Below are positions 1 to 64,000 of a stretch of 64,000 nt of DNA, piece by piece. Position 1 is the first letter of the stretch. Each line of letters starts with the position of its first letter. The DNA is from Methanococcus aeolicus Nankai-3 (GTDB lineage: Archaea; AGJL01; Methanococci; Methanococcales; Methanococcaceae): NCBI RefSeq assembly GCF_000017185.1, contig NC_009635.1, positions 248,563-312,562 on the forward strand, in the 5' to 3' direction. Position numbers and translations under genes: made by a program. The notes under the pieces were generated by a model. It had not been told where the DNA came from. It did not search any database and saw only the letters and a list, made by a program, of their open reading frames with translations.

Positions 1-242
1 TCTTTTTTATGCCCTTCTGAAAATTCATCTGTTATAAAATTAAAATTGGGGTCTAATCTATCCTCCCAATCGGGCAAAAAATATTTTAATTTATTATTCA
101 TAGTAAATACCACAAGTATATTGTATATTAATTTAATTACAATTATTGTCAGAAAATTTAATTTTCTCTTATATCAAAACGAAGAGTGGATTTCATTTCA
201 AGTTTTTCATTCTCTCCGCTTAAAATTAATTCTTTAATTTCA

Positions 243-1901
243 TCATGTTTTTTTATCTTCTCTATGTTTTAGTTCAATTCTACTTTTTAACTCGGTGAAA
301 ATAGCATTTGCTCTCTTCTCTAAAAATACAGGGTAATCATCATTCATAATTCCAAAATCATCTAAATCATTTATAAGGTGTGATTTTAATGAATTTGGCA
401 AATCATCATTTTTATCTAAAAAACCTTGAATATAAACTGATGGTGCATTAGCACCAATCTTTCTTTTATTTAAATCCGCTCCAACTAGAGCAATATTTAC
501 AAGGCTATTTTCGTTATCAATATTATTTTTCTTTAAATATGCTTTCGGGAAAAAATGATGATAATTTTTACTATTCGCAACTTTTAACCATGAGTTATCT
601 AAAATAACTTTCCCATTATCTTGAAAATCTTTTGGCTCGTGGTATGCCAATAAACATAAAATAGCCTTACAATAACTACTTCCCGCACTGAAATTTGTTT
701 CGATTAAATCTTTTGGAGAACTTAAATGAACTTTTACCTCATCGTAGTTTGGTCTATTCCCTTTTAAAATTTCATCAATTCTTTTAATATCTTGAGCCAG
801 TTTAGATTCTGTTGAACTTGAATACCTAAATGATAGCGATATTCTCCAAAAGAATTCTTCTAAATATTTTTGTTGTTCTCCTTGTGGCCTTTCTTTCTGG
901 AAATAAAAGAAGTATGCAAAAGGAACTAATAACGAGTCATAAGGTAAAAATGCAGAAACAGGAATACGATAAACTGAACGGAAATAATCAATACTTTCTT
1001 TTAGTGCTGAAATTACATCATCCCAAATATCAATAATTTTCTGTCTGTCCAGTTGTAAAATTACGTTTCTTTTACATTCTTTGTTTTTACTTAAAATAAG
1101 TCCAAGAATACTAAGAATTACGGAACTTGAAATTGTATCATATTTACTTTGGGATAATTCTTCCAATAATGTTTTGAATCTGTCTTCCATATCAAACTTT
1201 TGTTTTTCGTCATAAGTTTTTGCGGACATAATTTCAAAAAGAGTAAGAGTCTGTCCGCCCGTATTAATTCTTGTAAACACTTCTACTGCAGAATCAATAC
1301 CCTCTTTACGAAGAACAATAGTTGAAAAGTCATAGGTTGAAAAAGTTTGAGAATATTGATGTATTTTCTTGAAATGATCATCGGAGTATTTTTCTTTTAT
1401 TTTAAGTAAATTATCATTAAAATTTAATACTTCGTTAAGTGTTATAAAGGATGTTTCTTCAGGTTCTTCTGAAATGACAATTTGATTATCATTATCTTCG
1501 ATGTCCCCATCTAAATTTACATAAATTTCTCCGTAATCAGTAATTTTCTTTTCTCCTTCTTTTTGAATTTTAGCGCCCAAGAAAGCAGCATAAAGAGAAG
1601 TAATTCTTTGTTGCCCATCTAAAACATATTGAATTTTAGTGTCGTCGTCAGGAACAGGTGGAAGTTCAAGATTACCAATGTTTTTGATATTATTTAATCT
1701 TTCGTTTGTTTCCCACAAAATAAAAGTACCTATTGGATAACCTTTCAAAATACTATCCAATAATTTTGCAGTTCTATCCAAACTCCAAACAAAATTTCTT
1801 TGAAATTTAGGGACTTTAATTTGCCCGTTTTGAATTTCTGATATTAAATCAGTGTATTTCTTTGAATCTGGTTTTGGTTGCTTGCCCATAGTATTCCTCA
1901 T
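243..1901 (-). CDS. GmrSD-like type IV restriction / DUF262 (ParB-like nuclease) N-terminal and DUF1524 (His-Me finger) C-terminal protein
   Basis: 552-aa ORF. N-terminal 'VLDGQQRITSLY' is the DUF262 DGQQR hallmark. C-terminal region 'HHFFPKAY...LVNIALVGADLNKRK' resembles the DUF1524 HNH-like motif. Contains no GGAGCTCC copies, although the motif is abundant elsewhere in the window. Confidence 0.6.
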   Translation of the reverse strand: MRNTMGKQPKPDSKKYTDLISEIQNGQIKVPKFQRNFVWSLDRTAKLLDSILKGYPIGTFILWETNERLNNIKNIGNLELPPVPDDDTKIQYVLDGQQRITSLYAAFLGAKIQKEGEKKITDYGEIYVNLDGDIEDNDNQIVISEEPEETSFITLNEVLNFNDNLLKIKEKYSDDHFKKIHQYSQTFSTYDFSTIVLRKEGIDSAVEVFTRINTGGQTLTLFEIMSAKTYDEKQKFDMEDRFKTLLEELSQSKYDTISSSVILSILGLILSKNKECKRNVILQLDRQKIIDIWDDVISALKESIDYFRSVYRIPVSAFLPYDSLLVPFAYFFYFQKERPQGEQQKYLEEFFWRISLSFRYSSSTESKLAQDIKRIDEILKGNRPNYDEVKVHLSSPKDLIETNFSAGSSYCKAILCLLAYHEPKDFQDNGKVILDNSWLKVANSKNYHHFFPKAYLKKNNIDNENSLVNIALVGADLNKRKIGANAPSVYIQGFLDKNDDLPNSLKSHLINDLDDFGIMNDDYPVFLEKRANAIFTELKSRIELKHREDKKT

Positions 1902-2208
1902 TTAATATTAAAAGTTATATTTAGCATATAAGTTTTGTTCTTTTTTTAATTTATAAATCATCGTTTTCGGAATGGAGTGGAGAAAACACAATATTATCCC
2001 CTCTTTTGTTTTAGGAAAAATCAAATTTTCAAATTTTCCAGTCCTTATTTTAAAAATCTCTCTGCAAATTATTAAATTGTTAAAAAAATGATTGCACATA
2101 ACGGTTAGGAGATGTGTGAAGTTTACGACCGTAGGGAGCAAATTTGAGCGTAGCCGAAGGCAAAGCTATTAATTTTATTTTATATTTTTATTATATAGTA
2201 ATTTAAAT

Positions 2209-3129
2209 TTATAAAGGTTTCAATGGATACTTTTTTTTACAGACAGGACAGCCCCACCGTAAATCACAAATACTACATGTTTCTTTATCTGCTGGTTTGT
2301 CTATGTTCCAATTTCCTAATTCTTTACATTTTTCAATTTCTTTAACTGTGTTTGAGAAATTTTCCATAGCTTCCTTTATTTTTTTAATATTTTTTTCATC
2401 TTTAAAATCAATAATATATTTTGGTTTTGGTGATTTTATTCTATTGAGCTCATTTACAAAATATAAAATACATTTTGAAGGATACCTTCCTGTCTGTTGT
2501 TTAAGGAGCTCCCCATAAATAAGCATTTGATATTCATATTTTTTAAGTTTATCTTCATCTTTTGATGGAAATAGCATTCCTTTATAATCCCAAATTTCGA
2601 ATTCTCCGTCCTCATTTTTTGCGATTACATCCATTACACCATATAACAAATAATCTCCCATATCTGCCTGTAATCTTACCTCCGTATCAATAATTTTAGG
2701 ATAAAGGTGTTTTCCCTCAATTTTATTAAATTTTTTTAGGAGCTCCTTTACTTGGGATATTAATTTATTATTTTCTTTACTTATTGGAATTATGCCCCTT
2801 GATTTTAATGTTTCGTTTGCTTTATTGAGGAGCTCCTCAACATCTGCTTCTGTTGGTAGCGGGTCTTTTTCAGTCAATCCCCCTTTTATAAGTTTTATAT
2901 TGTGTAAGTATCTTCTATGAAGCATACTTAAAACTTGGTGAATTAAATCACCATGCCATGCCTGAGTTTTTTGGGTGCTGGAAAATCCTTTTACAGTATT
3001 AAATCCATACTGTCTTTTGCATAGTTGATATGATAGTATATCTGCTGTAATACTGTATCTTTGCTTTATTTTTTCCTTTTCTTCCTTTTTCTTTATTTTT
3101 AAGGATTTATAGGAATTTAATTCCATCAT
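2209..3129 (-). CDS. Cas4/RecB-family PD-(D/E)XK nuclease with C-terminal Cys cluster (DUF83-like)
   Basis: 306 aa. 'VMDVIAKNEDGEFEIWDYKG' fits D...ExK; 'YQMLIY' resembles QxxxY; C-terminal 'CSICDLRWGCPVC' plus an N-terminal Cys is consistent with 4Fe-4S ligands of Cas4/AddB-type nucleases. Lies immediately downstream of the helicase gene. Confidence 0.55.
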   Translation of the reverse strand: MMELNSYKSLKIKKKEEKEKIKQRYSITADILSYQLCKRQYGFNTVKGFSSTQKTQAWHGDLIHQVLSMLHRRYLHNIKLIKGGLTEKDPLPTEADVEELLNKANETLKSRGIIPISKENNKLISQVKELLKKFNKIEGKHLYPKIIDTEVRLQADMGDYLLYGVMDVIAKNEDGEFEIWDYKGMLFPSKDEDKLKKYEYQMLIYGELLKQQTGRYPSKCILYFVNELNRIKSPKPKYIIDFKDEKNIKKIKEAMENFSNTVKEIEKCKELGNWNIDKPADKETCSICDLRWGCPVCKKKYPLKPL

Positions 3130-3146
3130 ATTAATTCCCCATTTTT

Positions 3147-5402
3147 TTAATTAATTTTATTTATATTATTCTTAAAATACGAAGTATTTTTAATATATAT
3201 TTTTAAATTATTTGGGTGTTCTTTTATAAATCCATATAATTTATGGTTATTTTTTTTGTCTATTATATCAGATGTCCATAAATGTATAAGCCCATATTGA
3301 GCCCGAGAGTATGCCACATAATGAAATCTAATAATATCTTGAAATGTTTTTTTTCGTGGTATTGTGGATATTCTCTTAAAATCCGTAAATTCTGCAAATT
3401 CTCGTTCTAATATTGCCCCGTCATTTGCTTTATTCTGCCATTTTTGGAGATATACAAACACAAACGGAAATTCTAAACCTTTTGCCTGATGCACCGTCAT
3501 TATAGGAACTTTTCCTTCTGGAATAGTTATTTCCTCGTCCTCAATATCGTCAATACCCCCTAAAAAGTGCCCCACCAATGAGCCGTAAAATTCTATTAAC
3601 CATTTTACATCAACTTTACCTTTGGTGTGCCCATCAATTGAAATACTTCCTTTGCTTATTAAATTTTCCGTGGGTATTGTAGAATAGCTATTAAATAAAT
3701 TTGTTAATTTTGCCAACCTATAACTTTTTTCCTCGTCATTTAGCCATTCCGTAAATGGATAACAGGCATATATTTTATAAAGTATATTTTCAATGGAAGA
3801 ATTAATAAAACTGCCCTCTTCCATAGTTTTTAGTTTTTCTACACTACTATCCACATATTTTTTCAATTCTGGATATTTATTTTTATTGTTTTGATATTCC
3901 TCATACCATTTTACAACTTCGTTGCTAATAGGTTGAGACCTTAAATTATTTTCTAAAACGCTTATGTCGGTATCAACAATAGATATAAACGCCCCCAACG
4001 CCAATTTTATTTCCTCTTGATTTAAAAAATTCTTTGACCGTGGATTATATATGTCAATTCCATTATTCAATAATTTTTGTCTAATATGCCCAATAAATGA
4101 ATCATTGCCATTATAATCAATTTCCCTTGTGCTTTTTATTAATATTACGCATTGGGAGTAATCCTCAATAATATCATTGTCTTTAAAATATTTTATAGTA
4201 TTTGCAACCTCTTCGGCTAATTTCTCATCGTCTTCTTTTTCAATATAATTTAAAGCTAAATAATTGTCAATTGTTTCTTTATCCATTTCTTTTTTTGCCA
4301 CTAATTGCGGTTTATCCTTTACTCTGGCTCGTTCCATTTCCACATCTTTTGTATATTTATATGAATTTATGTAGTCATCATAATATTTTACAATATCTGG
4401 GTGGGAACGATAATTTGATTTTAAAAATATTTTATTAATTTTATCTATGGGAATATTGAATTTTTCTACACAGGTTTTATCAAAATTTACCATACATTCT
4501 ACTGTTCCGCCCCTAAACCTATACATAGCTTGGTCATCATCGCCAACAACACATAAATTATTATTTTCAATTTGTTTTGCCATTTTGAAATATATTTCCT
4601 CTTGAATTGGATTTGTATCTTGGTATTCATCTACCATAATATGTTTTATTGGTGGATTATATCCCGAGCCACTTAAAAACAATTCGCCGTCTTCTGAGTT
4701 TAGAAAATCTATAAATTTTAATTGAATTGTTGAAAATGTGCACAATTTAAATCCTTCTAATTTTTCCAAATATTTTTCGCATTCCTCGGCTAATTTTTTA
4801 TGGTATATTTTGCCATTTTTCAATTTATCAATATTAACTTTATCTTCGATAATTCTATTAAATAAAGTGATGGTTGCACTGGTTAGCCGAGCTTTGTTTT
4901 TATAATCAATTATCTGACAGCATAAATCTTTATCATATCTACCTACTAAACATCTAAATTTAGTCCATATCTCTTTATATCTAGCTCCATATTTTGCAAT
5001 GGGACAGTAATTATATACAAATATATAATTTTCAATTTCATTTATTAGTTTGTAATTTTCGTAGTCTGTATATTTGTATTCCTTCATTATGTCATTGCAT
5101 AAACTATGAAGTGTGCCAACTCTTAAACTGTGTATTTCTATGGAGCTCCCTTTTAATTCTGGATATAAATCATATAATTTAGTTGAATATTTTATAATTC
5201 TATCAAATAGATTTTGTGATGCCTTTTTTGTAAATGTGGTCAAGATTATTGATTTAGGATTAACTCCATCTACAAATATTAGTTTTAGCGTTCTAACTAC
5301 CAGAACTTCTGTTTTACCAGAGCCCGGACCTGCTACTACCCACAGTGGATTATCTTTGTGATTTACACTATTTTTTTGCTCCTCATTAAATTTATATCCC
5401 AA
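3147..5402 (-). CDS. UvrD/Rep/PcrA-family superfamily 1 DNA helicase
   Basis: 751 aa with motifs I 'AGPGSGKT', II 'VDEYQDTN', III 'VGDDDQAMYRFRGG', IV 'NYRS', V 'HQAKGLEFP', VI 'YVAYSRAQ'. Confidence 0.85.
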   Translation of the reverse strand: MGYKFNEEQKNSVNHKDNPLWVVAGPGSGKTEVLVVRTLKLIFVDGVNPKSIILTTFTKKASQNLFDRIIKYSTKLYDLYPELKGSSIEIHSLRVGTLHSLCNDIMKEYKYTDYENYKLINEIENYIFVYNYCPIAKYGARYKEIWTKFRCLVGRYDKDLCCQIIDYKNKARLTSATITLFNRIIEDKVNIDKLKNGKIYHKKLAEECEKYLEKLEGFKLCTFSTIQLKFIDFLNSEDGELFLSGSGYNPPIKHIMVDEYQDTNPIQEEIYFKMAKQIENNNLCVVGDDDQAMYRFRGGTVECMVNFDKTCVEKFNIPIDKINKIFLKSNYRSHPDIVKYYDDYINSYKYTKDVEMERARVKDKPQLVAKKEMDKETIDNYLALNYIEKEDDEKLAEEVANTIKYFKDNDIIEDYSQCVILIKSTREIDYNGNDSFIGHIRQKLLNNGIDIYNPRSKNFLNQEEIKLALGAFISIVDTDISVLENNLRSQPISNEVVKWYEEYQNNKNKYPELKKYVDSSVEKLKTMEEGSFINSSIENILYKIYACYPFTEWLNDEEKSYRLAKLTNLFNSYSTIPTENLISKGSISIDGHTKGKVDVKWLIEFYGSLVGHFLGGIDDIEDEEITIPEGKVPIMTVHQAKGLEFPFVFVYLQKWQNKANDGAILEREFAEFTDFKRISTIPRKKTFQDIIRFHYVAYSRAQYGLIHLWTSDIIDKKNNHKLYGFIKEHPNNLKIYIKNTSYFKNNINKIN

Positions 5403-5486: not shown

Positions 5487-5936
5487 TTATTTATTTATTG
5501 AAATAAGCCAATTTTTAAGTTGTGATAATCTTTCCCCTATCATACCATGCCCAATTATTGCATTATTATTTTTTAATATCTCTTTTCCCCTGTCCCCTAG
5601 TGCCAATTCATAGGTTTTTCCCATTGTTATAAATATTTCATCATAATTGTTATTCTTTAACTCTTGTTTTAATTTTGTAATTACTTGATTTTGTAATTCT
5701 TTTGCTCTTTTGGGTGTCATTACTTCATCATAATAATCTATTATATGGTTTGAATTAATTAATCCATATTTTGCCGATAAAATTAAAATATTTAAATTGT
5801 TATTATTATTCTCTTTTAAATTAAAATTTTTTCTTAAAACTTTATAATACATACCATTGTATAAATCTATTGCAGGAATATTATATTTATGGTGTTTTGT
5901 CTTTGAGCAGGATAAAATTAATAAATAATTTTTCAT
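5487..5936 (-). CDS. hypothetical protein (149 aa), co-oriented with the helicase
   Basis: ORF with N-terminal 'LILSCSKTKHH' motif; no family recognised from sequence alone; 14-bp gap to the upstream kinase-like gene. Confidence 0.4.
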   Translation of the reverse strand: MKNYLLILSCSKTKHHKYNIPAIDLYNGMYYKVLRKNFNLKENNNNNLNILILSAKYGLINSNHIIDYYDEVMTPKRAKELQNQVITKLKQELKNNNYDEIFITMGKTYELALGDRGKEILKNNNAIIGHGMIGERLSQLKNWLISINK

Positions 5937-5950: not shown

Positions 5951-6661
5951 TTATATTTTAAGTATGGTATTTTTATATATTTTTAGGAGCTCCCTTACTA
6001 CGACATAATCTTTTTCTGGAATATTTAATATTTCTTTTATTTTTTTTGAAGTATAACATTTGCCATAAAATAAAGATATAGCACCGGTAAAATTATGTGG
6101 CTTATTTTGTTTTTTTGCCTTATCAAAATCCAATAATTTTACAATGACATTGTTATTTTCCCTATTAATTATTATATGCTTCCCGCCTTGTATTTCTGTA
6201 TGGTCTATTTTGTGCAAATCTAATTTTAAACATTGTTTCATTGTTTGTCGTATAATTTGTAGGAGCTCCCTTTTATCAATATTATCCTGTTTCAAATAAT
6301 CCTTTAAATTAACTCCTTCTAGGAGCTCCATCATCAAAAAATTTTCAGAATAATTATAAACTATTGGGGCTACTCCAAATTTATTTGTTTCCATCATTAT
6401 TGTAGCTTCATTTATTATGGTATTTTTTGAATTAACTCTTGGGACTTTTAAAGCTATATGCTGATATTTAGTATTATCGTTATTATACCATAATCCTTTA
6501 AAAACTACTCCTCTGTGCCCCTTTCCAATAAAATCTAATAATTTTATATTCTGGTTTTTTGTGGTTTCTTTTAGGAGCTCCCAATCTACCAAATTATGAA
6601 TTATGGGGTGTTTTTTAAATTCTTCAATCTTTAAATTATTAAAATCATTAAAATTATTCAT
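5951..6661 (-). CDS. atypical protein-kinase-like protein (RIO/Bud32-like fold)
   Basis: 236 aa. Gly-rich loop 'IGKGHRGVVFKG', beta3 lysine 'IALKV', hinge 'MMELLEG', 'LDLHKIDH...N' catalytic-loop-like region, and 'LLDFDKAK' resembling a DFG-type metal-binding motif. Contains 4 GGAGCTCC copies in 711 bp. Confidence 0.45.
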   Translation of the reverse strand: MNNFNDFNNLKIEEFKKHPIIHNLVDWELLKETTKNQNIKLLDFIGKGHRGVVFKGLWYNNDNTKYQHIALKVPRVNSKNTIINEATIMMETNKFGVAPIVYNYSENFLMMELLEGVNLKDYLKQDNIDKRELLQIIRQTMKQCLKLDLHKIDHTEIQGGKHIIINRENNNVIVKLLDFDKAKKQNKPHNFTGAISLFYGKCYTSKKIKEILNIPEKDYVVVRELLKIYKNTILKI

Positions 6662-7030: not shown

Positions 7031-9970
7031 TTATTCAATATAAATAGCAACTTTATTTGGAATTGCAAATCTCTTTTTATTTCCAATGTCTTCCCCATTC
7101 ACAATTATTTTACATTGGAATTCATTTTCAAGGAATTGTTTTGCATCATTTAATATGTTCTCTTCGTCTATTGGGTTAGAAATTCCATTTTTAACTATTT
7201 CATTTATTAATTTTGGAATTTCTTTTCCATATCTTCTTAATTCTGCATTTTTCATAATCAATGGCATCATTTTATTAACGGGAGCTCCTTTATTTTCCAT
7301 CATAATTTTTAAAACTTCAAATTTCCAGTCATCAGCAGTATATAAATAAATAGTTTTTGGGGCGATATTTGCTATATTTATTATATTTCTTATATCGTCC
7401 ATTGTGTTTTTTATGAATTCTTCCCCCAATTCACAATTTTCATTTATATAACTATTATCTAGTTGCGGGAATGTTTCATTTGATATATAATTATTATTTT
7501 TATTATATCCAAACATCTCCCAAATTTCTTCGCATAAATGGGGTGTAATTGGTGCCAATACCTTTGTCCATATTTCAACAACATATTTTAATAGCTGGTT
7601 GTTATTTCCTCCTCTTCTTTTATACCACTTCAAATTATGAGTTAAACCATAAAATAAAGTTCCTATTTTTCTAAGCTGGAATTCATTATATGATTCATTT
7701 ATTATTTTTAAATCAGAATGAACTTTATGCAATAGCCATTTATCAATGGTGGATAATTCTGTTATTGTTTTTTCTGTATCCTTTAACTCTGTTGCCAATT
7801 CATAAAATCTAATTAAATTATCCCTTGCATGTTCCATTTCTTTAAATTTAACATCTGCATCGTGGGGGAGCTCCGCACATGTTGTAATGTAAAACCTACC
7901 TACATCAGGACCATAATTTGTTGCAACCTCCTCAATAGGAAGAACAGGACCTTTTGATTTAGACAATTTTTTACCTTCAATAGTTACATAGCCATTTACA
8001 ACAATTCCCTTTGGGTAGTATTTTTCATCATCAAATAAAGCCACATGGTTAAATATCATAAATGTTAAATGATTTGGAACAAGGTCTTTTGCCGAACATC
8101 TCCAATCAAGCGGATAATAATATTCAAATTCATTTCTCATTTCATTTATTAACTCAACAGGTATTTTTGTATTATTGGATATTTCGTTTATATCTCCTTT
8201 TCCATAATATACATAGTCAAACAACTCTGGAATAAGTTGTTCTGGCAATATATTGTTGGTATTTATTGTTTTTGCCACTGTATAATATGCCATATATAGA
8301 GTACTATCTGAAAGACTTTCAATAACCCAATCTTTATCAAATGGAAACCTTGTTCCAAGTCCTTTTTTCCTTGCACAGGCTTTATCCTTCATCCAATCAA
8401 TTTTATTGTGGAAATCCATCCTTATAGTTTCAGGCACAAAATTCATTTTATCTACCCAATTATGTGCCTTTTTTTTCCATTCTAAATCAGAATATGTAAT
8501 AAACCATTGCCCTTTAACAGTTTTTACAATACATTTTTCACCGCATCTACATACCACTTCTGGAATGGAAAATTCTTGAAGTGTTTCGGCCATATTGTTA
8601 TTTATAAAATCACTTGCTAACTTGTCTTTAATGTCCCTTACGGCAATTCCCTCATATTCTCCACAATTTTCATTTAATATCCCCTTGTGAAATTCCTGTT
8701 TATAAATTGTATGTGTGGCATCCTCTAATTTTTCGTCCTTTTGGTTTGTTATGCCCATTTTTTCTACAATTTCCTTTGCAGGATATTTTCCATATCCATC
8801 TATTTTTATAAGGGATATTAATTCATCATCAGTTAATTCTTTATTAATGCTACTGTAGTAATCCCTAAGTGCTACAAAATCCTTTGGAGCATGTGCTGGA
8901 ACACTCATTACACAGCCTGTTCCCATTTCGGAGCTCACAAAATCAGCAGGATATAGTGGAACCTCCTTATTATTTACTGGATTTATTACAATTTTTCCTA
9001 CCAATTCCTCTCCCTTTATTTCTTTTATTAATTCTACTGTTCTATCTTGATTTTTAAGTTTATCTGAGGCTTCTTTACTTACTATCCAAATGCCATTATA
9101 TTTTAACGATATTTCGTCGCTACCTTCCTCTTGGCTTTGCACTTCATCATAAACCTTTATTATGTGGTATGTATCATTTGGATTTATCCAAGCATTGACT
9201 ACTCCATATATTGTTTCTGGTCTAAGTGTGGCCATTGGGATTATACATTCATATTCTTTATCTTCGCCGTCTATTTCGATATTTAATTTTGTTTTAAATT
9301 TCAACAATATATATTCTTGAAGTGTTGCCTCCTCCCCCTTTAATAAATCGTGGTCTTCCACAGGATTATCACAACTTGGGCAATATCTAACAGGGTGCGA
9401 ACCTTTTACTATTAAATTTTTCTCTTTTAATTTTAAAAATTGCCATTCTACAAATTTTTTAAATGTTTCGTCATCTGTTTTAAAGTTCCTTCTCCAATCA
9501 AGAGCAAATCCCATTTTTTTAAATGATTCCGTAGCCTTTTTTGAAAAATAATTTACTATATTTTCTGGTGTTGTGAGTGTTTGGAGCTCCCCCATAGGAA
9601 TATTATGAAGTTTGTTGTATGCCCAAATAGTTTCTGGTGCCTGTTTTTTTAGGAGCTCCGCCAATCCAATAATTGGGGTTCCACTAACATGAAAACCAAA
9701 AGTCCATAATACTGTTTTATTATTCATTCTTTGGTATCTTGCCGTTATTTCGGGAATTGTAAAAGTTCTTAAATGTCCAGCATGGAGCACTCCATTTAAA
9801 TAAGGAAATGCTGCTGTAATAAAAAATTTATCTTTTTTTTCTTGTTCCGTATATTTTAATTTAGATGGATTTTCAAATATTTTATCTTCTTCCCATCTTT
9901 TTTGCCATTTTTCCGCAATCTTAACAAAATCAACGCTCATGTTATCAGTCCCTATATTTTTATAGTTCAT
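7031..9970 (-). CDS. leuS: leucyl-tRNA synthetase
   Basis: 979 aa; HIGH motif 'LHAGHLRTF', KMSKS motif 'KLSKSKG'; archaeal LeuRS length. Confidence 0.9.
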   Translation of the reverse strand: MNYKNIGTDNMSVDFVKIAEKWQKRWEEDKIFENPSKLKYTEQEKKDKFFITAAFPYLNGVLHAGHLRTFTIPEITARYQRMNNKTVLWTFGFHVSGTPIIGLAELLKKQAPETIWAYNKLHNIPMGELQTLTTPENIVNYFSKKATESFKKMGFALDWRRNFKTDDETFKKFVEWQFLKLKEKNLIVKGSHPVRYCPSCDNPVEDHDLLKGEEATLQEYILLKFKTKLNIEIDGEDKEYECIIPMATLRPETIYGVVNAWINPNDTYHIIKVYDEVQSQEEGSDEISLKYNGIWIVSKEASDKLKNQDRTVELIKEIKGEELVGKIVINPVNNKEVPLYPADFVSSEMGTGCVMSVPAHAPKDFVALRDYYSSINKELTDDELISLIKIDGYGKYPAKEIVEKMGITNQKDEKLEDATHTIYKQEFHKGILNENCGEYEGIAVRDIKDKLASDFINNNMAETLQEFSIPEVVCRCGEKCIVKTVKGQWFITYSDLEWKKKAHNWVDKMNFVPETIRMDFHNKIDWMKDKACARKKGLGTRFPFDKDWVIESLSDSTLYMAYYTVAKTINTNNILPEQLIPELFDYVYYGKGDINEISNNTKIPVELINEMRNEFEYYYPLDWRCSAKDLVPNHLTFMIFNHVALFDDEKYYPKGIVVNGYVTIEGKKLSKSKGPVLPIEEVATNYGPDVGRFYITTCAELPHDADVKFKEMEHARDNLIRFYELATELKDTEKTITELSTIDKWLLHKVHSDLKIINESYNEFQLRKIGTLFYGLTHNLKWYKRRGGNNNQLLKYVVEIWTKVLAPITPHLCEEIWEMFGYNKNNNYISNETFPQLDNSYINENCELGEEFIKNTMDDIRNIINIANIAPKTIYLYTADDWKFEVLKIMMENKGAPVNKMMPLIMKNAELRRYGKEIPKLINEIVKNGISNPIDEENILNDAKQFLENEFQCKIIVNGEDIGNKKRFAIPNKVAIYIE

Positions 9971-10329: not shown

Positions 10330-11703
10330 ATGATGGAAAACTTTTCAGAATGGTATCATAATATACTTGAAACAGCTGGAATATATGATTTAAGATATCC
10401 TTTAAAAGGTTGCGGTGTTTATCTCCCCTATGGATTTAAAATAAGAAGATATGCATTTGAAGCCATAAGAGATATGCTTGACGAATCAAACCACGATGAA
10501 GCACTATTCCCAATGTTAATTCCAGAAGATTTATTGGCAAAGGAAGGAGAACATATTAAAGGATTTGAGGAGGAAGTTTATTGGGTTACACATGGGGGAA
10601 CTACTCCACTTGATGTAAAACTTGCTTTAAGACCAACATCAGAAACTCCAATATATCACATGATGAAATTATGGATAAAAGTTCATACAGATTTGCCAAT
10701 AAAAATATATCAAATTGTAAATTCATTTAGATATGAAACAAAGCACACCAGACCACTTATAAGATTAAGAGAAATAATGACCTTTAAAGAGGCACATACA
10801 GCACATTCCACTAGCGAAGAGGCTGAGGCACAGGTGCAAACTGCACTAAATATATATAAAACATTCTTTGATAGGATGGGAGTTCCTACAATTGTATCGC
10901 AAAGACCAGAATGGGACAAATTCCCCGGTGCAGATTATACAATGGCTTTTGATACTATATTCCCCGACGGAAAAACTATGCAAATTGGGACGGTGCATAA
11001 TTTGGGGCAGCATTTTGCAAAAACTTTTGAATTGGAGTTTGAAACCCCGGAAGGAGGAAAAGACTACGCATACCAAACATGCTATGGTATTTCAGATAGA
11101 ATAATAGCTTCAATAATAGCACTACACGGAGATGAAAAAGGGCTTATATTGCCACCAGAAGTAGCTCCGCACCAGATTATAATTATTCCATTATTATTTA
11201 AAGGAAAAGAAGAAATTGCAATGAATAAAGCAAAAGAAATATATAAATCACTTAAAAACACATACAGAGTAAAATTAGATGATAGAGATATAAGACCAGG
11301 CAAGAAATTTAATGACTGGGAATTAAAGGGAGCTCCCATAAGGATAGAGTTGGGACCAAGAGATATTGAAAATAATAAATTAACAATTTACAGAAGAGAT
11401 ACAGGCGAAAAATTCCAAATAGATGAGGATAATTTATTAAATGAGCTAAATACTCTTATTGATTCAATAGAAAATACAATTAAAGAAAAGGCAGAACAGA
11501 AAGTTAAATCTTTTATTACAATATTGGATAATCATGATGTTAATAACATTAAAGAAACATTATCCACCAAAAAAGGAGTTGTATTGGTTCCTTATGACGA
11601 AAATATATATACTGAGGAATTTGAGGAAGAAATTGATGCTTCTGTATTGGGGACTACTGAATATGATGGGAAAAAGTATATTTCTATTGCTAAAACATAT
11701 TAA
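10330..11703 (+). CDS. proS: prolyl-tRNA synthetase (archaeal/eukaryotic type)
   Basis: 457 aa; class II aaRS motifs, N-terminus '[14 protein letters not shown]' typical of archaeal ProRS. Confidence 0.88.
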
Positions 11704-12089
11704 TTATTTTTTTATCTTATTTTTTATTAATTTTTGCAATGCTCTGCTGAATTATTCGTGGGGGCAGGTCAGAATAATATTTTGGATTATTTTAATAATG
11801 TATTTTCTAAAAATTAGTAAATACTATTTCCAAGTTTTGGGAGCTCCCTCGTTGAAGCATACTCTAAACTTGTGAGCCGTTATCATTTTTTATCGCGAAG
11901 TGTTTTTTTTATATTATGTTGTAATGTTGTGGAGTATTTAACTATTCGGCATTCATTTCTTTCACATGATGATTTGCTAACTATTTCGGAATAGTCTTCC
12001 TACCAAAAAGATAAAAGATAAAAAATATAAATTATAATTATTTATATTGATGTATATTTAAGTGTAATTTTAATAAAACAGGCGATAAT

Positions 12090-22162: not shown

Positions 22163-22290
22163 TGGGAGCTCCCATTTACTACTTAATTATAGTGTTTTTT
22201 ATCGGAGCTCCGATATAAAAATTAAAAGATTTTGCGTAAATATTTTTATTATTTTATTATATTCATTCTTTCATTTATTTTTATATTATT

Positions 22291-38034: not shown

Positions 38035-38092
38035 GGGGCCCACAATATATATTATATATGCCAATATCGTCATTAAAAATAGGGGTAATATT

Positions 38093-53390: not shown

Positions 53391-54401
53391 ATGAGAGAAA
53401 TCATGATGTCAGAATGTAGCGAATTATTAATTAATAATGAGTATATAGTTTCACAGCCATTTAGTAGGTCATGTTTCGACATAATTGCTAAAAAAAAGAA
53501 CTCAAAATTCTTAATAAAAATATTGAAAAATATAGATAGTCTAAGTGTTAAACAGTCATCGGCTCTCTTAAAAATATCTAATTTATTAAATGCCACTCCC
53601 CTTTTAATTGGTTCTAGAACAAGAAATTATCCCATGGAAGAAGGCGTAGTTTATGAAAGACATAGTATAAAATCAATCACATATAATACATTTGAACAAT
53701 ATTTGAAGGGAGCTCCTCCAATGGTATATGCTGGAAGAGGAGGATTTTTTGTGAATATTGATGGAACAGAATTAAGAAGGATAAGGGAGGAGTTAAATAT
53801 ATCCGTTGGAGAATTAGCGGATTTTGCAAATGTTTCAAGAAAAACCATATACAAATATGAACAAAATATGGCAAATCCATCTGTTGAAGTTGCAATAAAA
53901 ATAGAAGAATATTTGGATAGTCCATTAATTAATTGTATGGAATTAAGCGCCAGTAATTTAAAAGAAAATCCAAAAAATACAGAGGATACCAAAAACAAAA
54001 ATGATGCCAAAATAAATAAAACCAATGAAGAAAATGAATTTAAATCATTGGTTATGAATATATTAAATGAATTAGGATTTAATTTAACAGAAACTGAAAA
54101 AGCACCATTTGATGTAGTTGCTGAAAAATACAAAGTGAAACAGAAGTATGAAGAAGAACCCAGATATAATCCATTATTATTAACAAATATAGAAGAAAAT
54201 GACAATGCAGAAATAAGAAAAAAGGCCATGATTGTTAATCAAATTTCAAATATATTAAATAGTTATTCATTAATGATATTGGAAAATAGCTCAAATGATA
54301 TGGGAAATATAAAAACTTTGAGTTTTAAGGAGCTTGAAAAAATGGACGATGCTTTTGATTTAATGGACTATTTATTGGATTCAAATAAAAATAAAAAATA
54401 A
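53391..54401 (+). CDS. putative HTH (XRE-type) transcriptional regulator, methanogen-conserved family
   Basis: 336 aa; central 'ISVGELADFANVSRKTIYKYEQN' XRE-like HTH; N-terminal 'CSELL...CFDIIAKK' domain as in MJ1164-like proteins. Confidence 0.55.
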   Translation: MREIMMSECSELLINNEYIVSQPFSRSCFDIIAKKKNSKFLIKILKNIDSLSVKQSSALLKISNLLNATPLLIGSRTRNYPMEEGVVYERHSIKSITYNTFEQYLKGAPPMVYAGRGGFFVNIDGTELRRIREELNISVGELADFANVSRKTIYKYEQNMANPSVEVAIKIEEYLDSPLINCMELSASNLKENPKNTEDTKNKNDAKINKTNEENEFKSLVMNILNELGFNLTETEKAPFDVVAEKYKVKQKYEEEPRYNPLLLTNIEENDNAEIRKKAMIVNQISNILNSYSLMILENSSNDMGNIKTLSFKELEKMDDAFDLMDYLLDSNKNKK

Positions 54402-55137: not shown

Positions 55138-55282
55138 AATTTCACCGTTCTTTTTTTATTTTGTAGTTATAAATATAATCATTTTTATATTAATTTTAAG
55201 ATATAAAAATTAATCTATTGCGTAGTGTAGTTTGGGAGCTCCCTAATATTATTTTAATATTATTTTAATATGGCGTTGCAAT

Positions 55283-56983: not shown

Positions 56984-57061
56984 CGTGGAGCTCCATTATA
57001 TTCATATCAATATTATATGTACATAATGCGTTTAAAAAATTTATTTAATAATGTTAAATAT

Positions 57062-57359: not shown

Positions 57360-57947
57360 TTGTATAAATTAATAACCATATCTGACACCATTAGAGTTCC
57401 ACCCAAAATGTTCGGAGCTCCCTTAAAAGATAGCATACATAAAATATTAATGGAGAAATACGAAGGATTAATGGATAAAGACTTTGGTTTTATAATGTCC
57501 ATAGGCGATATCGGAGAAATTGGGGGGGGCAAGGTAGTTTATGGAGACGGAGCGGCATACCACCCTGCAATCTTTGATTTATTATGTTATGAACCAGAAC
57601 TATATGAAATTATAGAAGGAGAAATTGTAGATGTTGTAGAATTCGGTCTTTTCGTAAGATTGGGCCCGTTAGATGGACTTATACACATATCCCAAATTAT
57701 GGATGATTTCGTATCTTATGACCCGCAAAGGGGTGCTATCATTGGAAAAGAAAGCGGAAAAGTTATTGAAAAAGGCGATAAAGTTAGGGCAAGAATCGTG
57801 GCAATTAGTTTAAGAGAAGCTAAAAGAAGAGGAAGTAAAATAGCTTTAACGATGAGACAGCAAGGACTAGGAAAATTAGAATGGATTGAAGAAGAGAAAA
57901 ATAAAAGAGCTAATATCAACAATACAAAGGCTATTGCGGAAGAATAA
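57360..57947 (+). CDS. rpoE: DNA-directed RNA polymerase subunit E' (Rpb7 homolog)
   Basis: 195 aa; S1 domain; first gene of the conserved rpoE'-spt4-DUF359-S24e-S27ae cluster. Confidence 0.8.
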   Translation: MYKLITISDTIRVPPKMFGAPLKDSIHKILMEKYEGLMDKDFGFIMSIGDIGEIGGGKVVYGDGAAYHPAIFDLLCYEPELYEIIEGEIVDVVEFGLFVRLGPLDGLIHISQIMDDFVSYDPQRGAIIGKESGKVIEKGDKVRARIVAISLREAKRRGSKIALTMRQQGLGKLEWIEEEKNKRANINNTKAIAEE

Positions 57948-59655: not shown

Positions 59656-59828
59656 TGCGGGGAGCTCCCAAAATATAACATAATCTAATAAAACATATCT
59701 TTTTTTAAATTGTTCGAAAATATTATATATCATTCATTATTTAATCGATATTGTTATTATTTCATTATTTATCTTTATTTATTATTTTATTTAATTGTAT
59801 AGTTATTTTAAATTTGGTGAATTAAAAT

Positions 59829-60901: not shown

Positions 60902-61231
60902 ATGAAAGTGCTATTATATATATTTGTAGAAATTGAAAATATTGGAAAAGCTATCAATGCCCTTTCAGAAGGGGAAATTTCTGGATTTTTTTTAATGGAA
61001 TATAAAGGAATGTCACCTCAAGAGTGGGCTGGATTTTTAATTGACGAGGAACCTGAAAAAGCTGTAAAAATAATCAATGATATGGCCAAAAATTCAGTTG
61101 TAATTGGAACTGTTGTTAGTGAGAATAATCTTGAAAACATAAAATATGCCATAGCTGAAAAATTAGGGGACTACAAACATACGATTATGGAGCTCCCATT
61201 ATGCGGACTAAAAGTAAATAAAGTGGATTAA
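60902..61231 (+). CDS. methanogen-conserved hypothetical protein
   Basis: 109-aa ORF directly upstream of atwA; no recognised motif. Confidence 0.4.
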   Translation: MKVLLYIFVEIENIGKAINALSEGEISGFFLMEYKGMSPQEWAGFLIDEEPEKAVKIINDMAKNSVVIGTVVSENNLENIKYAIAEKLGDYKHTIMELPLCGLKVNKVD

Positions 61232-61267: not shown

Positions 61268-62875
61268 TTGGTGATGATAATGGTATTGCTTGAAGTAAAA
61301 AATGTTAGTAAAAAATTTGGAGATAGTGAGGTATTGAAAAATATAAATTTTACATTGGATGAAGGAGAGGTTCTTGGAATTCTTGGAAGAAGTGGTGCTG
61401 GAAAATCGGTTTTACTACATATGCTTAGGGGTATGGAGGGGTATGAACCAACAGAAGGGCAGATAATTTATACCGTAGCTCAATGTGATGGATGTGGTTC
61501 AGTAGAAGTTCCTTCGATGGAAAATCAAAAATGTAGTTGTGGAGGCAATTATGAGCTGATTTCTGTTGATTTCTGGGACAAAAATCAGACAACATTTAAT
61601 TTAAAAAGAAAAATTGCCATAATGCTCCAAAGAACTTTTGCTTTATATGGTGAGCAATCTGTTATTGAAAATATATTGCAGGCACTATCAGCAGCAGGGT
61701 ATGAAGGAAAAGAGGCAACAAATATAGCTCTAAAATTAATAAAAATGATTAAAATGGAGCATAGAATTACTCATGTTGCAAGAGATTTAAGTGGGGGAGA
61801 AAAACAGAGGGTAGTTCTTGCACGACAGATAGCTAAAAAACCAATCATATTTTTGGCAGATGAACCAACTGGAACACTGGACCCAAAAATCGCAAAAATT
61901 GTTCATAAAGCACTAAAAGAGACCGTAGTTAAAAATAAAATAGGCATGGTAATAACTTCTCACTGGCACGAGGTAATAGAAGAATTGGCAAATAAAGCCA
62001 TATGGTTAGAAAAAGGAGAGATAAAAGAACAGGGAGATAGTAAAGAAATAGTTGCTAAATTTGTAGAAACCATTACAGAATTAAAGAAATTTGACAAGGT
62101 TGAAATTAAAGAGGATATGGCAATATTGGAAAATGTTGAGAAAAAATATTGTTCGGTTGAAAGGGGAATTGTAAATGCCGTTGGTGGAGTATCATTAGAT
62201 ATTAAAGAAATGGAAATATATGGATTGGTTGGAACCAGTGGTGCTGGAAAAACTACCTTATCAAAAATAATTGCAGGTGTAATTCCTCCATCGAAAGGAA
62301 AATATATATTTAGGGTGGGGGATGAATGGGTAGATATGACACAACCTGGTCCAATGCATAGGGGAAGGGCAAAAAGATACATAGGTATGTTATTCCAAGA
62401 ATACACATTATATCCACATAGAACAATATTATACAACCTTACAGAATCCATTGGCTTGGAGCTCCCTGGAGAATTTGGAATGATGAAAGCTAATCAGGTG
62501 TTGGTTTCAGTAGGTTTCACAGAAGAGGAGGCAGAGAAACTATTGGATAAATATCCAAATGAGCTCAGTGTTGGGGAAAAACACAGAGTAGCACTTGCCC
62601 AAGTTCTTATAAAAGAGCCACATATGGTATTATTAGACGAACCAACTGGAACAATGGATCCAATTACAAGAAACCAAGTTGCAGAATCGATTCAAAAATC
62701 AAGGGCAGAATTAGAGCAAACTTATGTTATAGTATCTCATGATATGGATTTTGTGTTAAATGTATGTGATAGGGTGGCATTAATGAGGGGAGGCAAAATA
62801 ATTAAAATAGGAGCTCCCGAAGAAATTGTTCAAATATTGACGGAAGAAGAAAAAGAAGAAATGATTGGACATTAA
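61268..62875 (+). CDS. atwA: methyl-coenzyme M reductase system component A2 (tandem ABC ATPase)
   Basis: 535 aa with two ABC domains: Walker A 'GRSGAGKS' and 'GTSGAGKT', signatures 'LSGGEKQRV' and 'LSVGEKHRV', Walker B 'FLADEPT' and 'LLDEPT'. Confidence 0.8.
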
Positions 62876-62943
62876 TAACATATATTATTTATATAATTTT
62901 ATTTTTTTAATTATTTATTTTATTATTGTTTTTGAAAGGTAAT

Positions 62944-63073
62944 TATAGTTAATCTTCAATAACTGTTCCTTATCCGTCCCAAATTGAGCATATTTCTCTG
63001 TTGTTGGTAATATAATAAGAGATTTTATATTCTTTAACTATGCATTACGGAAATTGTTCGAAGATTGACTACA
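62944..63073. mobile_element. MITE-like element (~130 bp)
   Basis: TATAGTTAATCTTCAATAACTGTTCC ... GGAAATTGTTCGAAGATTGACTACA; lies immediately upstream of the terminal secreted-protein gene. Confidence 0.6.
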
Positions 63074-63075
63074 AA

Positions 63076-64000
63076 TGAATGGTAAAAATATATTATTGGG
63101 AATATCAATTTTAACAAATGTATTATTGATAATATTAATAATATCATCTGTTTATATGGTATGGAGCTCCGCCAATGATTCCAGAAATGCAATTCCATTT
63201 GAACAAATGGCAGAGGGGCAAAATTCAATCTCAATAGTAAGTCAAAAAGTCATATTTGAAGATAACAATATCTATGTGGAAGTAGTTGGTAAAAACATAG
63301 GGGATAGAGTATGCGAAGGAAGTATAACTGCTAAATTTTATGATTCGGGGTGTTATTTAATAGGTAGCACAACAGAATACATTGCTAATATTGATTCGGG
63401 CGAAACATTTAAAATAAAAATAAACAGTCCTCACAATAATAATATATCAACAGTTAATTTATCAATAAAAAGTTATGGCAGTATGCAAACTTATGACGGA
63501 GCTCCCATTCAAACCAACTATAATATTTTAAAATACAACAATAGTCAAATTATTGAAGTTGTCGGTAAAAATACAAACAATAAAAAACTTAATGGATATA
63601 TTTTAATAAAATATTATGATGGCAATAATATATTAATAGGGCAGAATGAGGTTTATTTATCTTGTGTATCCCCAAATGAGGAGTTTAAATTTAAAACCCA
63701 TTACAATACTTGGATACATAATAATTACACAATTTCAAAATGCAAAATATATTCTATCTTTGATATATACAATCCCGTAGGAGGTTATTTGAGGGAGTTG
63801 GATAATGGAAAACAAACAGATATAAAAATAATTAGTCAAAAATTATCAATGTCAAAAAATGGACAGGCATATGTAGAACTAATTGGTGAGAATACAGCTA
63901 AAAATAGTATAGGTGGAGCAAATATACAAATTAAATTTTACAATGACAATAATATATTAATTGGATGTGGGGAAAAATATATTAAAAATATAGGGGCCAA
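63076..64000 (+). CDS. secreted protein with internal ~100-aa repeats (5' partial; continues beyond the window)
   Basis: N-terminal TM/signal 'NILLGISILTNVLLIILIISSVYMV'; repeated modules '...VEVVGKN...Y(D/Y)...LIG...' at least 3 times. Confidence 0.5.

Follow-up and report, generated by a model that had tools for sequence, protein, structure and literature searches.

We analyzed a stretch of 64,000 bp from the genome of the archaeon Methanococcus aeolicus Nankai-3 (contig NC_009635.1, positions 248,563 to 312,562; hereafter the window, with coordinates counted from its first letter) and found that the 8-bp palindrome GGAGCTCC is a true highly iterated palindrome (HIP) of this species. A compact gene cluster of the Dpd DNA-modification type, which lies at the left edge of the window and continues past it, may account for it. 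The window contains 55 exact copies, or 0.86 per kb, against a zero-order expectation of 0.09 and a mean of 0.16 (maximum 3) in 100 dinucleotide-preserving shuffles, an excess of 340-600x. An earlier reading of the letters alone, here called the original prediction, had proposed a hyper-abundant palindrome and asked for a ranking of all 8-mers. With 55 copies where 0.1-0.2 are expected, GGAGCTCC takes first rank in the window under every background model, with z-scores of 132, 89 and 32 for Markov orders 1, 2 and 3. The coordinates quoted at the time are correct except for a copy placed at 29096-29103, which lies at 29097-29104 (its 12-mer spans 29095-29106), and the four copies reported for the 711-bp kinase-like gene at 5951-6661 are all present. 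The number of seven-of-eight variants had been put at about eight; we counted 16 one-mismatch variants.

The 8-mer is the unit in this window, because GG..CC flanks surround 55 of the 67 GAGCTC hexamers and 55 of the 180 AGCT tetramers, while AGCT as a whole occurs at its expected frequency. The hexamer GAGCTC is 17x over-represented. Beyond the 8-mer there is a preference at position -1, with G in 47 of 110 symmetrised flanks, and no information further out. The longer palindromes of 10-14 bp described in the original prediction do exist, as an extension in 36% of the copies, but they do not stand as a separate feature, since the independent preference at -1 alone predicts 30%. As had been noted, the copies use all three reading frames on both coding strands (14 as GAP, 18 as xELx and 8 as xSS) and lie inside conserved genes without disrupting the open reading frames (ORFs); about 15 are non-coding. 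The genes concerned are those of a housekeeping region, with the leucyl- and prolyl-tRNA synthetases (LeuRS and ProRS), eIF2-gamma, HisC, PpsA, the fla operon and others, and a single tRNA (33255-33339). Exact protein matches, ABR55826 to ABR55874, identify the source as M. aeolicus Nankai-3. No fixed placement of the window copies relative to gene starts or ends was found. Used as a literature query, GGAGCTCC recovered primers and barcodes only. Neither searches on HIPs in archaea nor searches on palindromes and over-represented words of M. aeolicus turned up an account of this palindrome for Methanococcales in the searchable literature, in line with what the original prediction had supposed.

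The codons under the palindrome depart sharply from codon usage, in which CTC makes up 4% of leucine codons and GAG 21% of glutamate codons. GGAGCTCC spells 14 of the 17 Gly-Ala-Pro tripeptides, against 1.95 expected from codon usage, and the three others are the one-off GGAGCCCC. It likewise occupies 18 of the 31 x-Glu-Leu-[LPHQR] sites and 8 of the 16 [RGW]-Ser-Ser sites. The encoded proteins carry the imprint as well: the tripeptide GAP occurs 17 times against 1.9 expected (9-fold), and most of its permutations occur 0-1 times (APG, found 7 times, overlaps motif contexts). ELL is present 21 times versus 7 for LEL and 6 for LLE, and GSS 12 times versus 2 each for SGS and SSG.

Alignment of motif-containing codons to their orthologs, a check proposed with the original prediction, revealed substitutions both at synonymous sites and at replaced residues. 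In LeuRS and ProRS, the synonymous route runs through conserved Glu-Leu pairs, where GAA CTT has become GAG CTC. The replacement route changes DKN to GAP and GVP to GAP, and a stepwise series leads from GIP through GVP, the state of the window (GGAGTTCC), to GAP in a sister lineage of M. aeolicus. In one case an isoleucine-to-leucine change, restricted to the M. aeolicus clade, supplies the last C of the 8-mer. No indels were found at motif sites in the ortholog alignments. The alignments indicate that copies of GGAGCTCC arise by point substitution and not by insertion. A directional force at the level of DNA writes GGAGCTCC by substitution where coding allows and then keeps the sites intact; it overrides codon preference and in places even replaces amino acids.

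To follow the palindrome across Methanococcales, we compared orthologous loci of one genome per species together with metagenome contigs (L-numbers denote the retrieved loci and contigs); beyond the window, the comparison covered the adjacent 14.8 kb in M. aeolicus PL15/Hp and an unlinked region of Methanothermococcus sp. Ax23. In PL15/Hp (97.7% nucleotide identity), 22 of 22 window sites are kept. In the sister lineage, known from metagenomes only (~89% nucleotide identity), 19 of 22 are intact, compared with 10.9 predicted from matched 8-mers in the same phase. The enrichment extends past the window, which disposes of the concern that the copies might be confined to it: PL15/Hp has 8 further copies in the next 14.8 kb, and contigs of the sister lineage carry 0.8-1.3 copies per kb, including in regions outside the window. 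HIPs of the HIP1 kind are short GC-rich octamers that lie tens to hundreds of times above expectation, with some 0.3-2.7 copies per kb. Measured against their features, GGAGCTCC displays the abundance, the distribution over coding and non-coding DNA, the substitutional origin and the conservation above background; no cognate methyltransferase is evident in the genome, and the word is not GCGATCGC in a cyanobacterial host.

The 8-mer is held by M. aeolicus (including PL15/Hp) and its sister lineage, whereas Ax23, S013_52 and related contigs hold the 6-mer GAGCTC with variable flanks, enriched 15-45x; in the Ax23 region 1.4 Mb away, 38 copies were found against 1.5 expected. The functional core is GAGCTC, with the full 8-mer needed in M. 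aeolicus and its sister and the 6-mer alone elsewhere in Methanothermococcus. No motif enrichment was detected at the orthologous loci of GCA_054002535 and of a lineage with a GC content of 24%. In the LeuRS tree the clade with the 8-mer is not sister to the one with the 6-mer, and a motif-free lineage branches close to each. The contrast is steepest between Ax23 and GCA_054002535, whose LeuRS genes are 93% identical at the DNA level and 80% identical at four-fold sites: none of the nine Ax23 sites that could be aligned is present in GCA_054002535, where each hexamer differs at 1-4 positions. At the same time L107, which is 78% identical to Ax23, has 13 of the 18 Ax23 sites, versus 27% for control hexamers. 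Outgroup-like codons in GCA_054002535 suggest gain in Ax23, and the sharing with L107 suggests loss in GCA_054002535. Gain or loss alike implies a site-specific acceleration, with rates far from background. Turnover and persistence so far from background require a strong, switchable and lineage-specific force, and the comparisons among these relatives support a force of that strength and lineage specificity.

DNA that appears to be recently acquired lacks the palindrome. IS605/TnpB genes in PL15/Hp (L095 12394-13593) and Ax23 (L094 13578-14561) are free of the motif, and so is an insertion of 2.1 kb at 103-2180 of the window, which encodes a DUF262 protein and orf77. The insertion contains no GGAGCTCC and no AGCT (~5.7 expected). 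That these two genes are an insertion in M. aeolicus follows from the sister contigs, in which a full-length DpdA gene comes directly after the nuclease gene; the insertion was probably acquired recently. It looks like defence-type DNA from an AGCT-avoiding source, and the DUF262 protein corresponds to the PADLOC candidate PDC-M55C. In PL15/Hp, a further stretch of about 6 kb with a P-type ATPase and an ABC transporter (L095 15400-21380) is motif-free and possibly acquired.

The insertion interrupts a gene cluster on the minus strand past LeuRS, which reads kinase, DUF6884 protein, UvrD-family helicase, PD-(D/E)XK nuclease, orf77, DUF262 protein and the start of dpdA, whose predicted product is a DNA-guanine transglycosylase. 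Positions 1-92 match the Ax23 DpdA with 79% identity over 28 amino acids (tblastn) and the start of the full-length DpdA gene in the sister contigs L108 and L110 with 94-95% nucleotide identity. Ax23 has the matching gene order past LeuRS, ending in DpdA. The Ax23 protein scores 427 bits with NCBIfam NF041059 (cutoff 200), E = 1e-123 with the PADLOC profile and E = 1e-80 with PDB 7ui4. DpdA of the sister clade can be aligned over its full length with the Salmonella enzyme of 7ui4 (E = 4e-70) and retains both the GDCGAF motif and the CxCxxC...H zinc site. The DUF6884 protein matches DpdC profiles in part only (PADLOC DpdC, E = 1.7e-6; PDC-M57A, E = 1e-13), and the ParB-like DUF262 protein has weak similarity to DGQHR and SspE. 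The nuclease is rare, with 11 homologs among 5.8 billion proteins, none of them from a named Methanococcus, Methanocaldococcus or Methanotorris species; the neighbours of these homologs are DpdA/TGT, QueC and DUF6884 genes. The restriction genes dpdD-K are lacking, and UvrD and PD-(D/E)XK, which show only weak similarity to AddA and AddB, stand in their place. By its predicted DpdA, the cluster is classed as a compact variant of the Dpd system without dpdB and dpdD-K. We found no paper in the literature that links Dpd to Methanococcales or to GGAGCTCC. A helix-turn-helix gene of the window with a PDDEXK_19 domain was also considered as the determinant and rejected, since regulators of its family are widely conserved in archaea.

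A metagenome scan with a DpdA alignment recovered 65 loci. In the Methanococcales clade of DpdA (L104-L110), which is monophyletic although its hosts are not sisters, GAGCTC is hyper-abundant in every member: 19 copies versus 0.4 in L104, 29 versus 1.6 in L107, and mostly as the 8-mer in L108-110. A second case comes from outside the archaea. Three contigs of one organism with a GC content of 39% (L146, L151 and L161) carry a DpdA 45% identical to that of Ax23, and contain GAGCTC 17 times versus 1.5, 12 versus 0.9 and 9 versus 0.5, respectively. We take the organism to be a bacterium because the neighbouring genes encode DNA polymerase III delta, RseP, TlyA, SurE and ThiL. Its genes are ordered UvrD-PDDEXK-DpdA, without the DUF6884 protein at L146. 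Eight of its 23 Glu-Leu dipeptides are spelled GAGCTC (1.8 expected), with sites across housekeeping genes; the flank preference is for A and not G, and the preferred word is AGAGCTCT. In the loci retrieved, the predicted module accompanies GAGCTC hyper-abundance in every lineage where both are visible, including this unrelated bacterium. The only biochemically mapped DpdA site was obtained on pUC19 with DpdAB of Salmonella and falls within CAGCTG, the PvuII site; the enzyme requires a C after the target G, and CxGCxG was proposed as a partial motif (PMC10164549). CAGCTG and GAGCTC are both 6-bp palindromes with a common AGCT centre. From this co-occurrence and the one biochemical precedent we infer a link between the Dpd module and the palindrome.

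Two other features of the DpdA loci were tried as support and dropped. Depletion of AGCT in DpdA contigs, which might have pointed to an AGCT core, is shared by 7 of 79 control loci, and one organism group supplies many of the cases. A general link between DpdA clades and NNGCNN palindromes such as TTGCAA and TGGCCA is too weak to claim; a set of contigs with a GC content of 42-48% (L132, L139, L142-L145, L148, L153, L156, L158, L160, L164 and L169) has AGCT at 0.07-0.28x and TTGCAA at 5-6x. A missing dpd cluster at this locus in motif-free relatives would also be weak evidence, since synteny among Ax23, S013_52 and GCA_054002535 is limited to the ProRS-LeuRS block.

A virus-like contig (L101/L102) from the same metagenomes as the sister lineage has a GC content of 24.6%, many small ORFs, and genes for DNA ligase, ThyA, HEPN, DUF6884 and PD-(D/E)XK proteins. 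It contains 110 AGCT against 23 expected, 27 AGCTCC/GGAGCT half-sites and 17 one-off 8-mers. The exact GGAGCTCC occurs 0 times against a maximal-order expectation of ~2.9, which may point to avoidance of the full site. This contig has no relatives in IMG/VR, and viral scans returned two DpdA relatives only. Among annotated plasmids, the closest DpdAs (41-43% identity) come from cyanobacteria, e.g. L171 of Picosynechococcus sp. PCC 73109, where their partners are DEAD/DEAH helicases and a second TGT-like gene, and not UvrD and PD-(D/E)XK.

We see an even chance that this HIP is the recognition site of the Dpd module and owes its abundance to biased repair directed by the modification. In this model the target of DpdA is the central G of GA-G-CTC, which on both strands would be replaced by a 7-deazaguanine derived from preQ0, a compound that these archaea already make for archaeosine in tRNA. 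The nuclease and the helicase would act as MutH and UvrD do in Dam-directed repair: in a heteroduplex of a modified strand bearing the site and an unmodified strand lacking it, the unmodified strand would be nicked and resynthesised, and gene conversion would favour the modified site. Where a methanogen is polyploid and recombines, new sites would spread and losses would be repaired, with fast gain, near-saturation and high conservation as the outcome. Polyploidy and recombination are established in Methanococcales for M. maripaludis and M. jannaschii. The broader proposal, that DpdA, PD-(D/E)XK and UvrD constitute a mobile module for 7-deazaguanine-directed, strand-discriminating repair or gene conversion, which writes GAGCTC or GGAGCTCC into archaeal and bacterial hosts and reshapes their proteomes, is one we put forward tentatively and consider doubtful.

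Several observations count against amplification by modification-directed repair. About 50 of the 65 DpdA-bearing contigs lack enrichment of GAGCTC or of any other strong palindrome, and the module alone is therefore not sufficient; a prophage-like locus of Bacillaceae has all four genes and no enrichment. The co-occurrence table leaves out GCA_054002535, the lineage with 24% GC and S013_52, and is partly confounded by shared ancestry. Neither the sister lineage nor Ax23 has a DpdB partner, and the ParB-like gene of the window is part of the insertion. The step of biased conversion is purely inferred, and a mismatch sensor is not evident. Modification of the motif is a prediction in all these organisms. 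Single-molecule real-time (SMRT) sequencing of PL15/Hp gave no unknown modified motif (PMC10113651), although the pipeline might not flag 7-deazaguanine. Finally, the spacing of sites is uneven (coefficient of variation 1.13), and regular repair marks might predict evenness.

The same module could act through selection in place of conversion. Modified sites would then serve as marks of 'self' that stop or deflect a helicase-nuclease in the manner of Chi, or protect from nucleases, each site bringing a small gain in fitness, and density would climb until coding constraints halt it. This version draws on the same Dpd co-occurrence as amplification by repair. The module's partner genes, a UvrD-type helicase and a RecB/AddB-like PD-(D/E)XK nuclease with weak similarity to AddA/AddB, would suit it, and so would the conservation of sites above background and the 5x enrichment of AGCT in the virus-like contig with DUF6884 and PDDEXK genes. 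Selection on each single site would, however, be very weak, yet codon bias is overridden and amino acids are changed; turnover is far faster than background, the spacing is clumped, and most hosts of the same module are unenriched. We regard selection of this kind as unlikely.

The original prediction had looked to DNA modification and to repair or recombination, and had suggested a SacI- or AluI-like methyltransferase. The general direction remains the best lead, with the Dpd module encoded partly in the window; the methyltransferase form of it did not hold up. The avoidance of short palindromes in the window is strong (ACGT 2 against 177 expected, CTAG 0.19x, GATC 0.18x, GTAC 0.22x). MaeII (ACGT) and MaeI (CTAG) are known systems of the species, and avoidance of their sites is the classical response; for GATC and GTAC there is no published cognate system in M. 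aeolicus. An ordinary target of type II restriction-modification fails as a reading of GGAGCTCC, because GAGCTC is over-represented while ACGT, CTAG, GATC and GTAC are avoided. The SMRT methylome of PL15/Hp comprises N4-methylcytosine in CTAG, N6-methyladenine in GTNAC, GCACY and CGAG, and 5-methylcytosine (m5C) inferred for ACGT (Fomenkov et al. 2023, PMC10113651). All methyltransferase genes that two search methods detected in PL15/Hp are assigned to a listed motif, the sole m5C enzyme to ACGT, and the paper mentions neither GAGCTC nor palindromes (PMC10113651). Neither the methylome nor the inventory holds anything for GAGCTC or AGCT, and we found no DNA methyltransferase in the window or beside the module in Ax23, the sister lineage or the L146-type bacterium. 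These data also answer the proposal to inspect the motif for methylation, with the reservation that m5C is not formally excluded, being invisible to standard SMRT analysis. A cognate methyltransferase, possibly of the m5C type, that creates or maintains the palindrome through methylation-directed repair is accordingly improbable in our view, despite GAGCTC being a classical type II site and despite the analogy with HIP1, in which DmtC and DmtA act on the core (PMC4390886; bioRxiv 10.64898/2026.06.24.733823).

An equally small probability is given to GGAGCTCC being the binding site of an unidentified chromosomal protein, with a role in architecture, segregation or recombination, maintained by selection and associated with dpd by coincidence or shared ancestry. 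Conservation above background at both coding and non-coding sites, as reported for HIP1 (PMC5861425), would be natural for such a site. A palindrome also suits a dimeric binder, and the many unenriched dpd-bearing genomes pose no difficulty. It is harder to reconcile with the same word in both archaea and a bacterium, which have only the module in common, with the extremely fast gain and loss among relatives 93% identical, and with the lack of any positional pattern or regular spacing.

Still less probable is a signal for DNA uptake or self-recognition, independent of Dpd and spread by molecular drive through natural transformation, like the DNA uptake sequence (DUS) and the uptake signal sequence (USS). 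The density of ~0.9 per kb resembles that of HIP1 (PMC4390886), USS and DUS, as does the accumulation by substitution with effects on proteins; lineage 'dialects' exist (8-mer, 6-mer, A-flanked), and HIP1 is now proposed to enhance transformation (bioRxiv 10.64898/2026.06.24.733823). The distribution speaks otherwise: the same core occurs in archaea and in a bacterium, which have unrelated uptake machineries and the Dpd module in common, and its presence is patchy among very close relatives. To our knowledge, uptake signals are not palindromes, and we know of no report of competence in M. aeolicus. On this evidence the methyltransferase, unknown-binder and uptake-signal models are less well supported than the readings within the Dpd framework. 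An artefact, a by-product of amino-acid or codon usage and a dispersed element such as a miniature inverted-repeat transposable element or a repetitive extragenic palindromic element can be dismissed as practically negligible, given the presence of the palindrome in two independently sequenced strains and many metagenome assemblies, its occurrence against codon usage, its ~15 non-coding copies, and the lack of conserved sequence beyond -1 and of indels at sites.

Among known systems, the closest parallel is HIP1 (GCGATCGC), together with the alternative HIPs of cyanobacteria, and the analogy drawn in the original prediction holds for abundance, frames, substitutional spread and conservation. 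Both words are GC-rich 8-bp palindromes with ~1 copy per kb, a hundreds-fold excess, and copies in all frames and in non-coding DNA. Both consist of a 6-bp core with one base on each side, have spread by substitution without indels, and are conserved between relatives. They also have in common a patchy distribution, lineage variants and a DNA-modification enzyme suspected to act on the core. The present case differs in its word, with GAGCTC as the core, in its hosts, which are archaea and one bacterium and not cyanobacteria, and in an even higher enrichment (~600x) in a genome of 30% GC. No cognate methyltransferase is evident here, and the candidate activity is the exchange of a base by DpdA, with a nuclease and a helicase encoded alongside.

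The candidate module resembles dpdA-K of Salmonella Montevideo in its orthologous DpdA (E = 1e-80), with zinc site and active-site motif kept, its DpdC-related partner, its linked helicase and nuclease genes, its horizontal mobility and the AGCT centre of the mapped CAGCTG. It differs in being compact, with 3-4 genes (DpdA, PD-(D/E)XK, UvrD and a short DUF6884 protein) and no conserved DpdB, in residing in a cellular archaeon, and in being known from its genes alone. No over-representation of a target site has been described for Dpd hosts, whereas GAGCTC is hyper-abundant here. With Dam-MutH-UvrD of Escherichia coli and with Vsr, the module would have in common a site-specific marking enzyme, a PD-(D/E)XK nuclease and a UvrD helicase. 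Biased repair has a known effect on the frequencies of short words, which it skews for CCWGG and CTAG in E. coli, for example. The differences are that no sensor of the MutS/MutL type was identified here, that the mark would be a replaced base and not a methyl group, that the effect is larger by orders of magnitude, and that the function is assigned by analogy. The DUS of Neisseria, the USS of Haemophilus and Chi resemble GGAGCTCC in density, in accumulation by point mutation and in their imprint on proteins. Those signals are asymmetric, tied to competence or to RecBCD/AddAB, and conserved at the family level, whereas GGAGCTCC is palindromic, which leaves no orientation possible, is patchy in near relatives, and has a core common across domains together with the Dpd module.

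For 30 years HIPs have been recognised in cyanobacteria, and there is still no consensus on what causes them. M. aeolicus, an archaeon whose genome is small and sequenced, offers a case just as extreme, with relatives that carry the 8-mer, the 6-mer or neither as natural contrasts. The candidate gene set is compact and lies beside a housekeeping gene, which makes the cause of the palindrome directly testable. If the Dpd link is true, it would provide a recognition sequence for a DpdA family, where even that of the Salmonella enzyme has yet to be defined, and an example of a DNA-modification system that drives accumulation of its sites rather than their avoidance; the 9-fold excess of Gly-Ala-Pro would show how strongly such a force bends proteins. 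Were the repair module confirmed, it would be the first mechanistic account of a HIP and the first cellular archaeal Dpd system. GGAGCTCC is in addition a sensitive marker that distinguishes native from recently acquired DNA, and it is relevant to cloning and genetics of M. aeolicus.

Table 1. Predicted genes of the Dpd-type cluster, the insertion within it, and all exact copies of GGAGCTCC in the window.
Feature	Position	Strand	Context
dpdA 5' end (~28 codons), predicted DNA-guanine transglycosylase	1..92	-	gene leaves window at left edge
Insertion relative to sister lineage	103..2180	-	DUF262/GmrSD_N ParB-like (243-1901) and orf77 (1908-2141)
Predicted PD-(D/E)XK nuclease	2209..3129	-	Pfam PDDEXK_1, E = 3e-19; 3 motif copies
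Predicted UvrD-family helicase	3147..5402	-	1 motif copy
DUF6884 protein, DpdC-like (short form, 149 aa)	5487..5936	-	Pfam DUF6884, E = 1e-17
GGAGCTCC	2505..2512	.	PDDEXK gene, xELx frame
GGAGCTCC	2739..2746	.	PDDEXK gene, xELx frame
GGAGCTCC	2829..2836	.	PDDEXK gene, xELx frame
GGAGCTCC	5142..5149	.	UvrD gene, xSS frame; absent in sister lineage
GGAGCTCC	5986..5993	.	kinase gene, xELx frame
GGAGCTCC	6262..6269	.	kinase gene; AGAACTTC in sister lineage, 3 substitutions
GGAGCTCC	6322..6329	.	kinase gene
GGAGCTCC	6574..6581	.	kinase gene
GGAGCTCC	7281..7288	.	LeuRS, GAP frame; DKN in outgroups
GGAGCTCC	7867..7874	.	LeuRS, conserved A-E-L-P
GGAGCTCC	9583..9590	.	LeuRS
GGAGCTCC	9652..9659	.	LeuRS; last C supplied by I-to-L change
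GGAGCTCC	11329..11336	.	ProRS, GAP frame; GVP in outgroups
GGAGCTCC	11840..11847	.	intergenic
GGAGCTCC	14876..14883	.	HerA C-terminal ORF
GGAGCTCC	19525..19532	.	TraB-family gene
GGAGCTCC	20714..20721	.	CBS-domain gene
GGAGCTCC	20839..20846	.	CBS-domain gene
GGAGCTCC	21282..21289	.	GHMP kinase gene
GGAGCTCC	21943..21950	.	GHMP kinase gene
GGAGCTCC	22165..22172	.	intergenic
GGAGCTCC	22204..22211	.	intergenic
GGAGCTCC	24517..24524	.	eIF2-gamma, GAP frame
GGAGCTCC	24838..24845	.	eIF2-gamma, GAP frame
GGAGCTCC	25273..25280	.	eIF2-gamma, GAP frame
GGAGCTCC	25779..25786	.	GHMP kinase gene
GGAGCTCC	26765..26772	.	tetrapyrrole methylase gene
GGAGCTCC	26975..26982	.	tetrapyrrole methylase gene
GGAGCTCC	27438..27445	.	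intergenic
GGAGCTCC	27993..28000	.	intergenic
GGAGCTCC	28262..28269	.	HisC
GGAGCTCC	29097..29104	.	HisC
GGAGCTCC	31290..31297	.	intergenic
GGAGCTCC	32562..32569	.	intergenic
GGAGCTCC	33189..33196	.	intergenic, 66 nt upstream of tRNA
GGAGCTCC	34038..34045	.	intergenic
GGAGCTCC	35141..35148	.	flagellin gene 3' part, within 17-mer CCAGAGTTCGGAGCTCC
GGAGCTCC	35273..35280	.	between flagellin genes, within 17-mer CCAGAGTTCGGAGCTCC
GGAGCTCC	36588..36595	.	flagellin-like gene 3' part, within 17-mer CCAGAGTTCGGAGCTCC
GGAGCTCC	42719..42726	.	FlaI ATPase gene
GGAGCTCC	48219..48226	.	phosphoenolpyruvate (PEP) synthase gene
GGAGCTCC	49250..49257	.	PEP synthase gene
GGAGCTCC	51980..51987	.	Trm5 gene; absent in sister lineage (GTAGTTTT)
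GGAGCTCC	52220..52227	.	Trm5 gene
GGAGCTCC	53077..53084	.	125-aa ORF
GGAGCTCC	53709..53716	.	helix-turn-helix regulator gene
GGAGCTCC	55235..55242	.	intergenic, conserved in sister lineage
GGAGCTCC	56987..56994	.	intergenic, conserved in sister lineage
GGAGCTCC	57414..57421	.	Rpo7 gene
GGAGCTCC	59661..59668	.	intergenic, conserved in sister lineage
GGAGCTCC	61189..61196	.	PII-like gene
GGAGCTCC	62458..62465	.	AtwA-like ABC ATPase gene
GGAGCTCC	62810..62817	.	AtwA-like ABC ATPase gene
GGAGCTCC	63163..63170	.	ORF off right edge (359-aa hypothetical in PL15/Hp)
GGAGCTCC	63498..63505	.	same right-edge ORF as 63163..63170

The fla operon is overall poor in GGAGCTCC. Its three near-identical tandem flagellin genes (36687-38737) keep the one-off GGAGCCCC, and their motif-compatible GSS sites are unused; the three copies near flagellin gene ends have the 17-mer CCAGAGTTCGGAGCTCC in common. 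The HerA helicase is split into two ORFs, at 13816-14466 (profile positions 82-252) and 14506-15336 (profile positions 263-537), and the identical split is annotated in PL15/Hp. Beside the tRNA gene, PL15/Hp has an annotated DUF2540 gene and a phage-type integrase (L087 839-2042); no long ORF is called in the counterpart of this stretch in Nankai-3 (33110-34556).

Words with an AGCT core vary in both directions, excess and deficit, across Methanococcales. AGCT is nearly absent from two Methanothermococcus lineages, L003 (3 versus 37) and L011 (2 versus 29). In Methanocaldococcus sp. 16A and 28A (L006 and L013) it is found at 2.2x, with CAGCTG 10 versus 1.5 in 16A. One metagenome contig, L109 (OFDI01000199.1), is a mosaic: bases 1-4050, with LeuRS and the kinase gene, are 96-100% identical to Ax23 and have sites of the 6-mer type, and the remainder, which contains the dpd genes, has 8-mer sites and 84-90% identity to M. 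aeolicus. Either the assembly is chimeric or the dpd cluster was replaced naturally, and the contig was left out of the lineage comparisons. Another contig, from an uncultured archaeon (L010, 22.8 kb), contains 38 copies of TCAGACCG/CAGACCGT, which probably form a CRISPR array.

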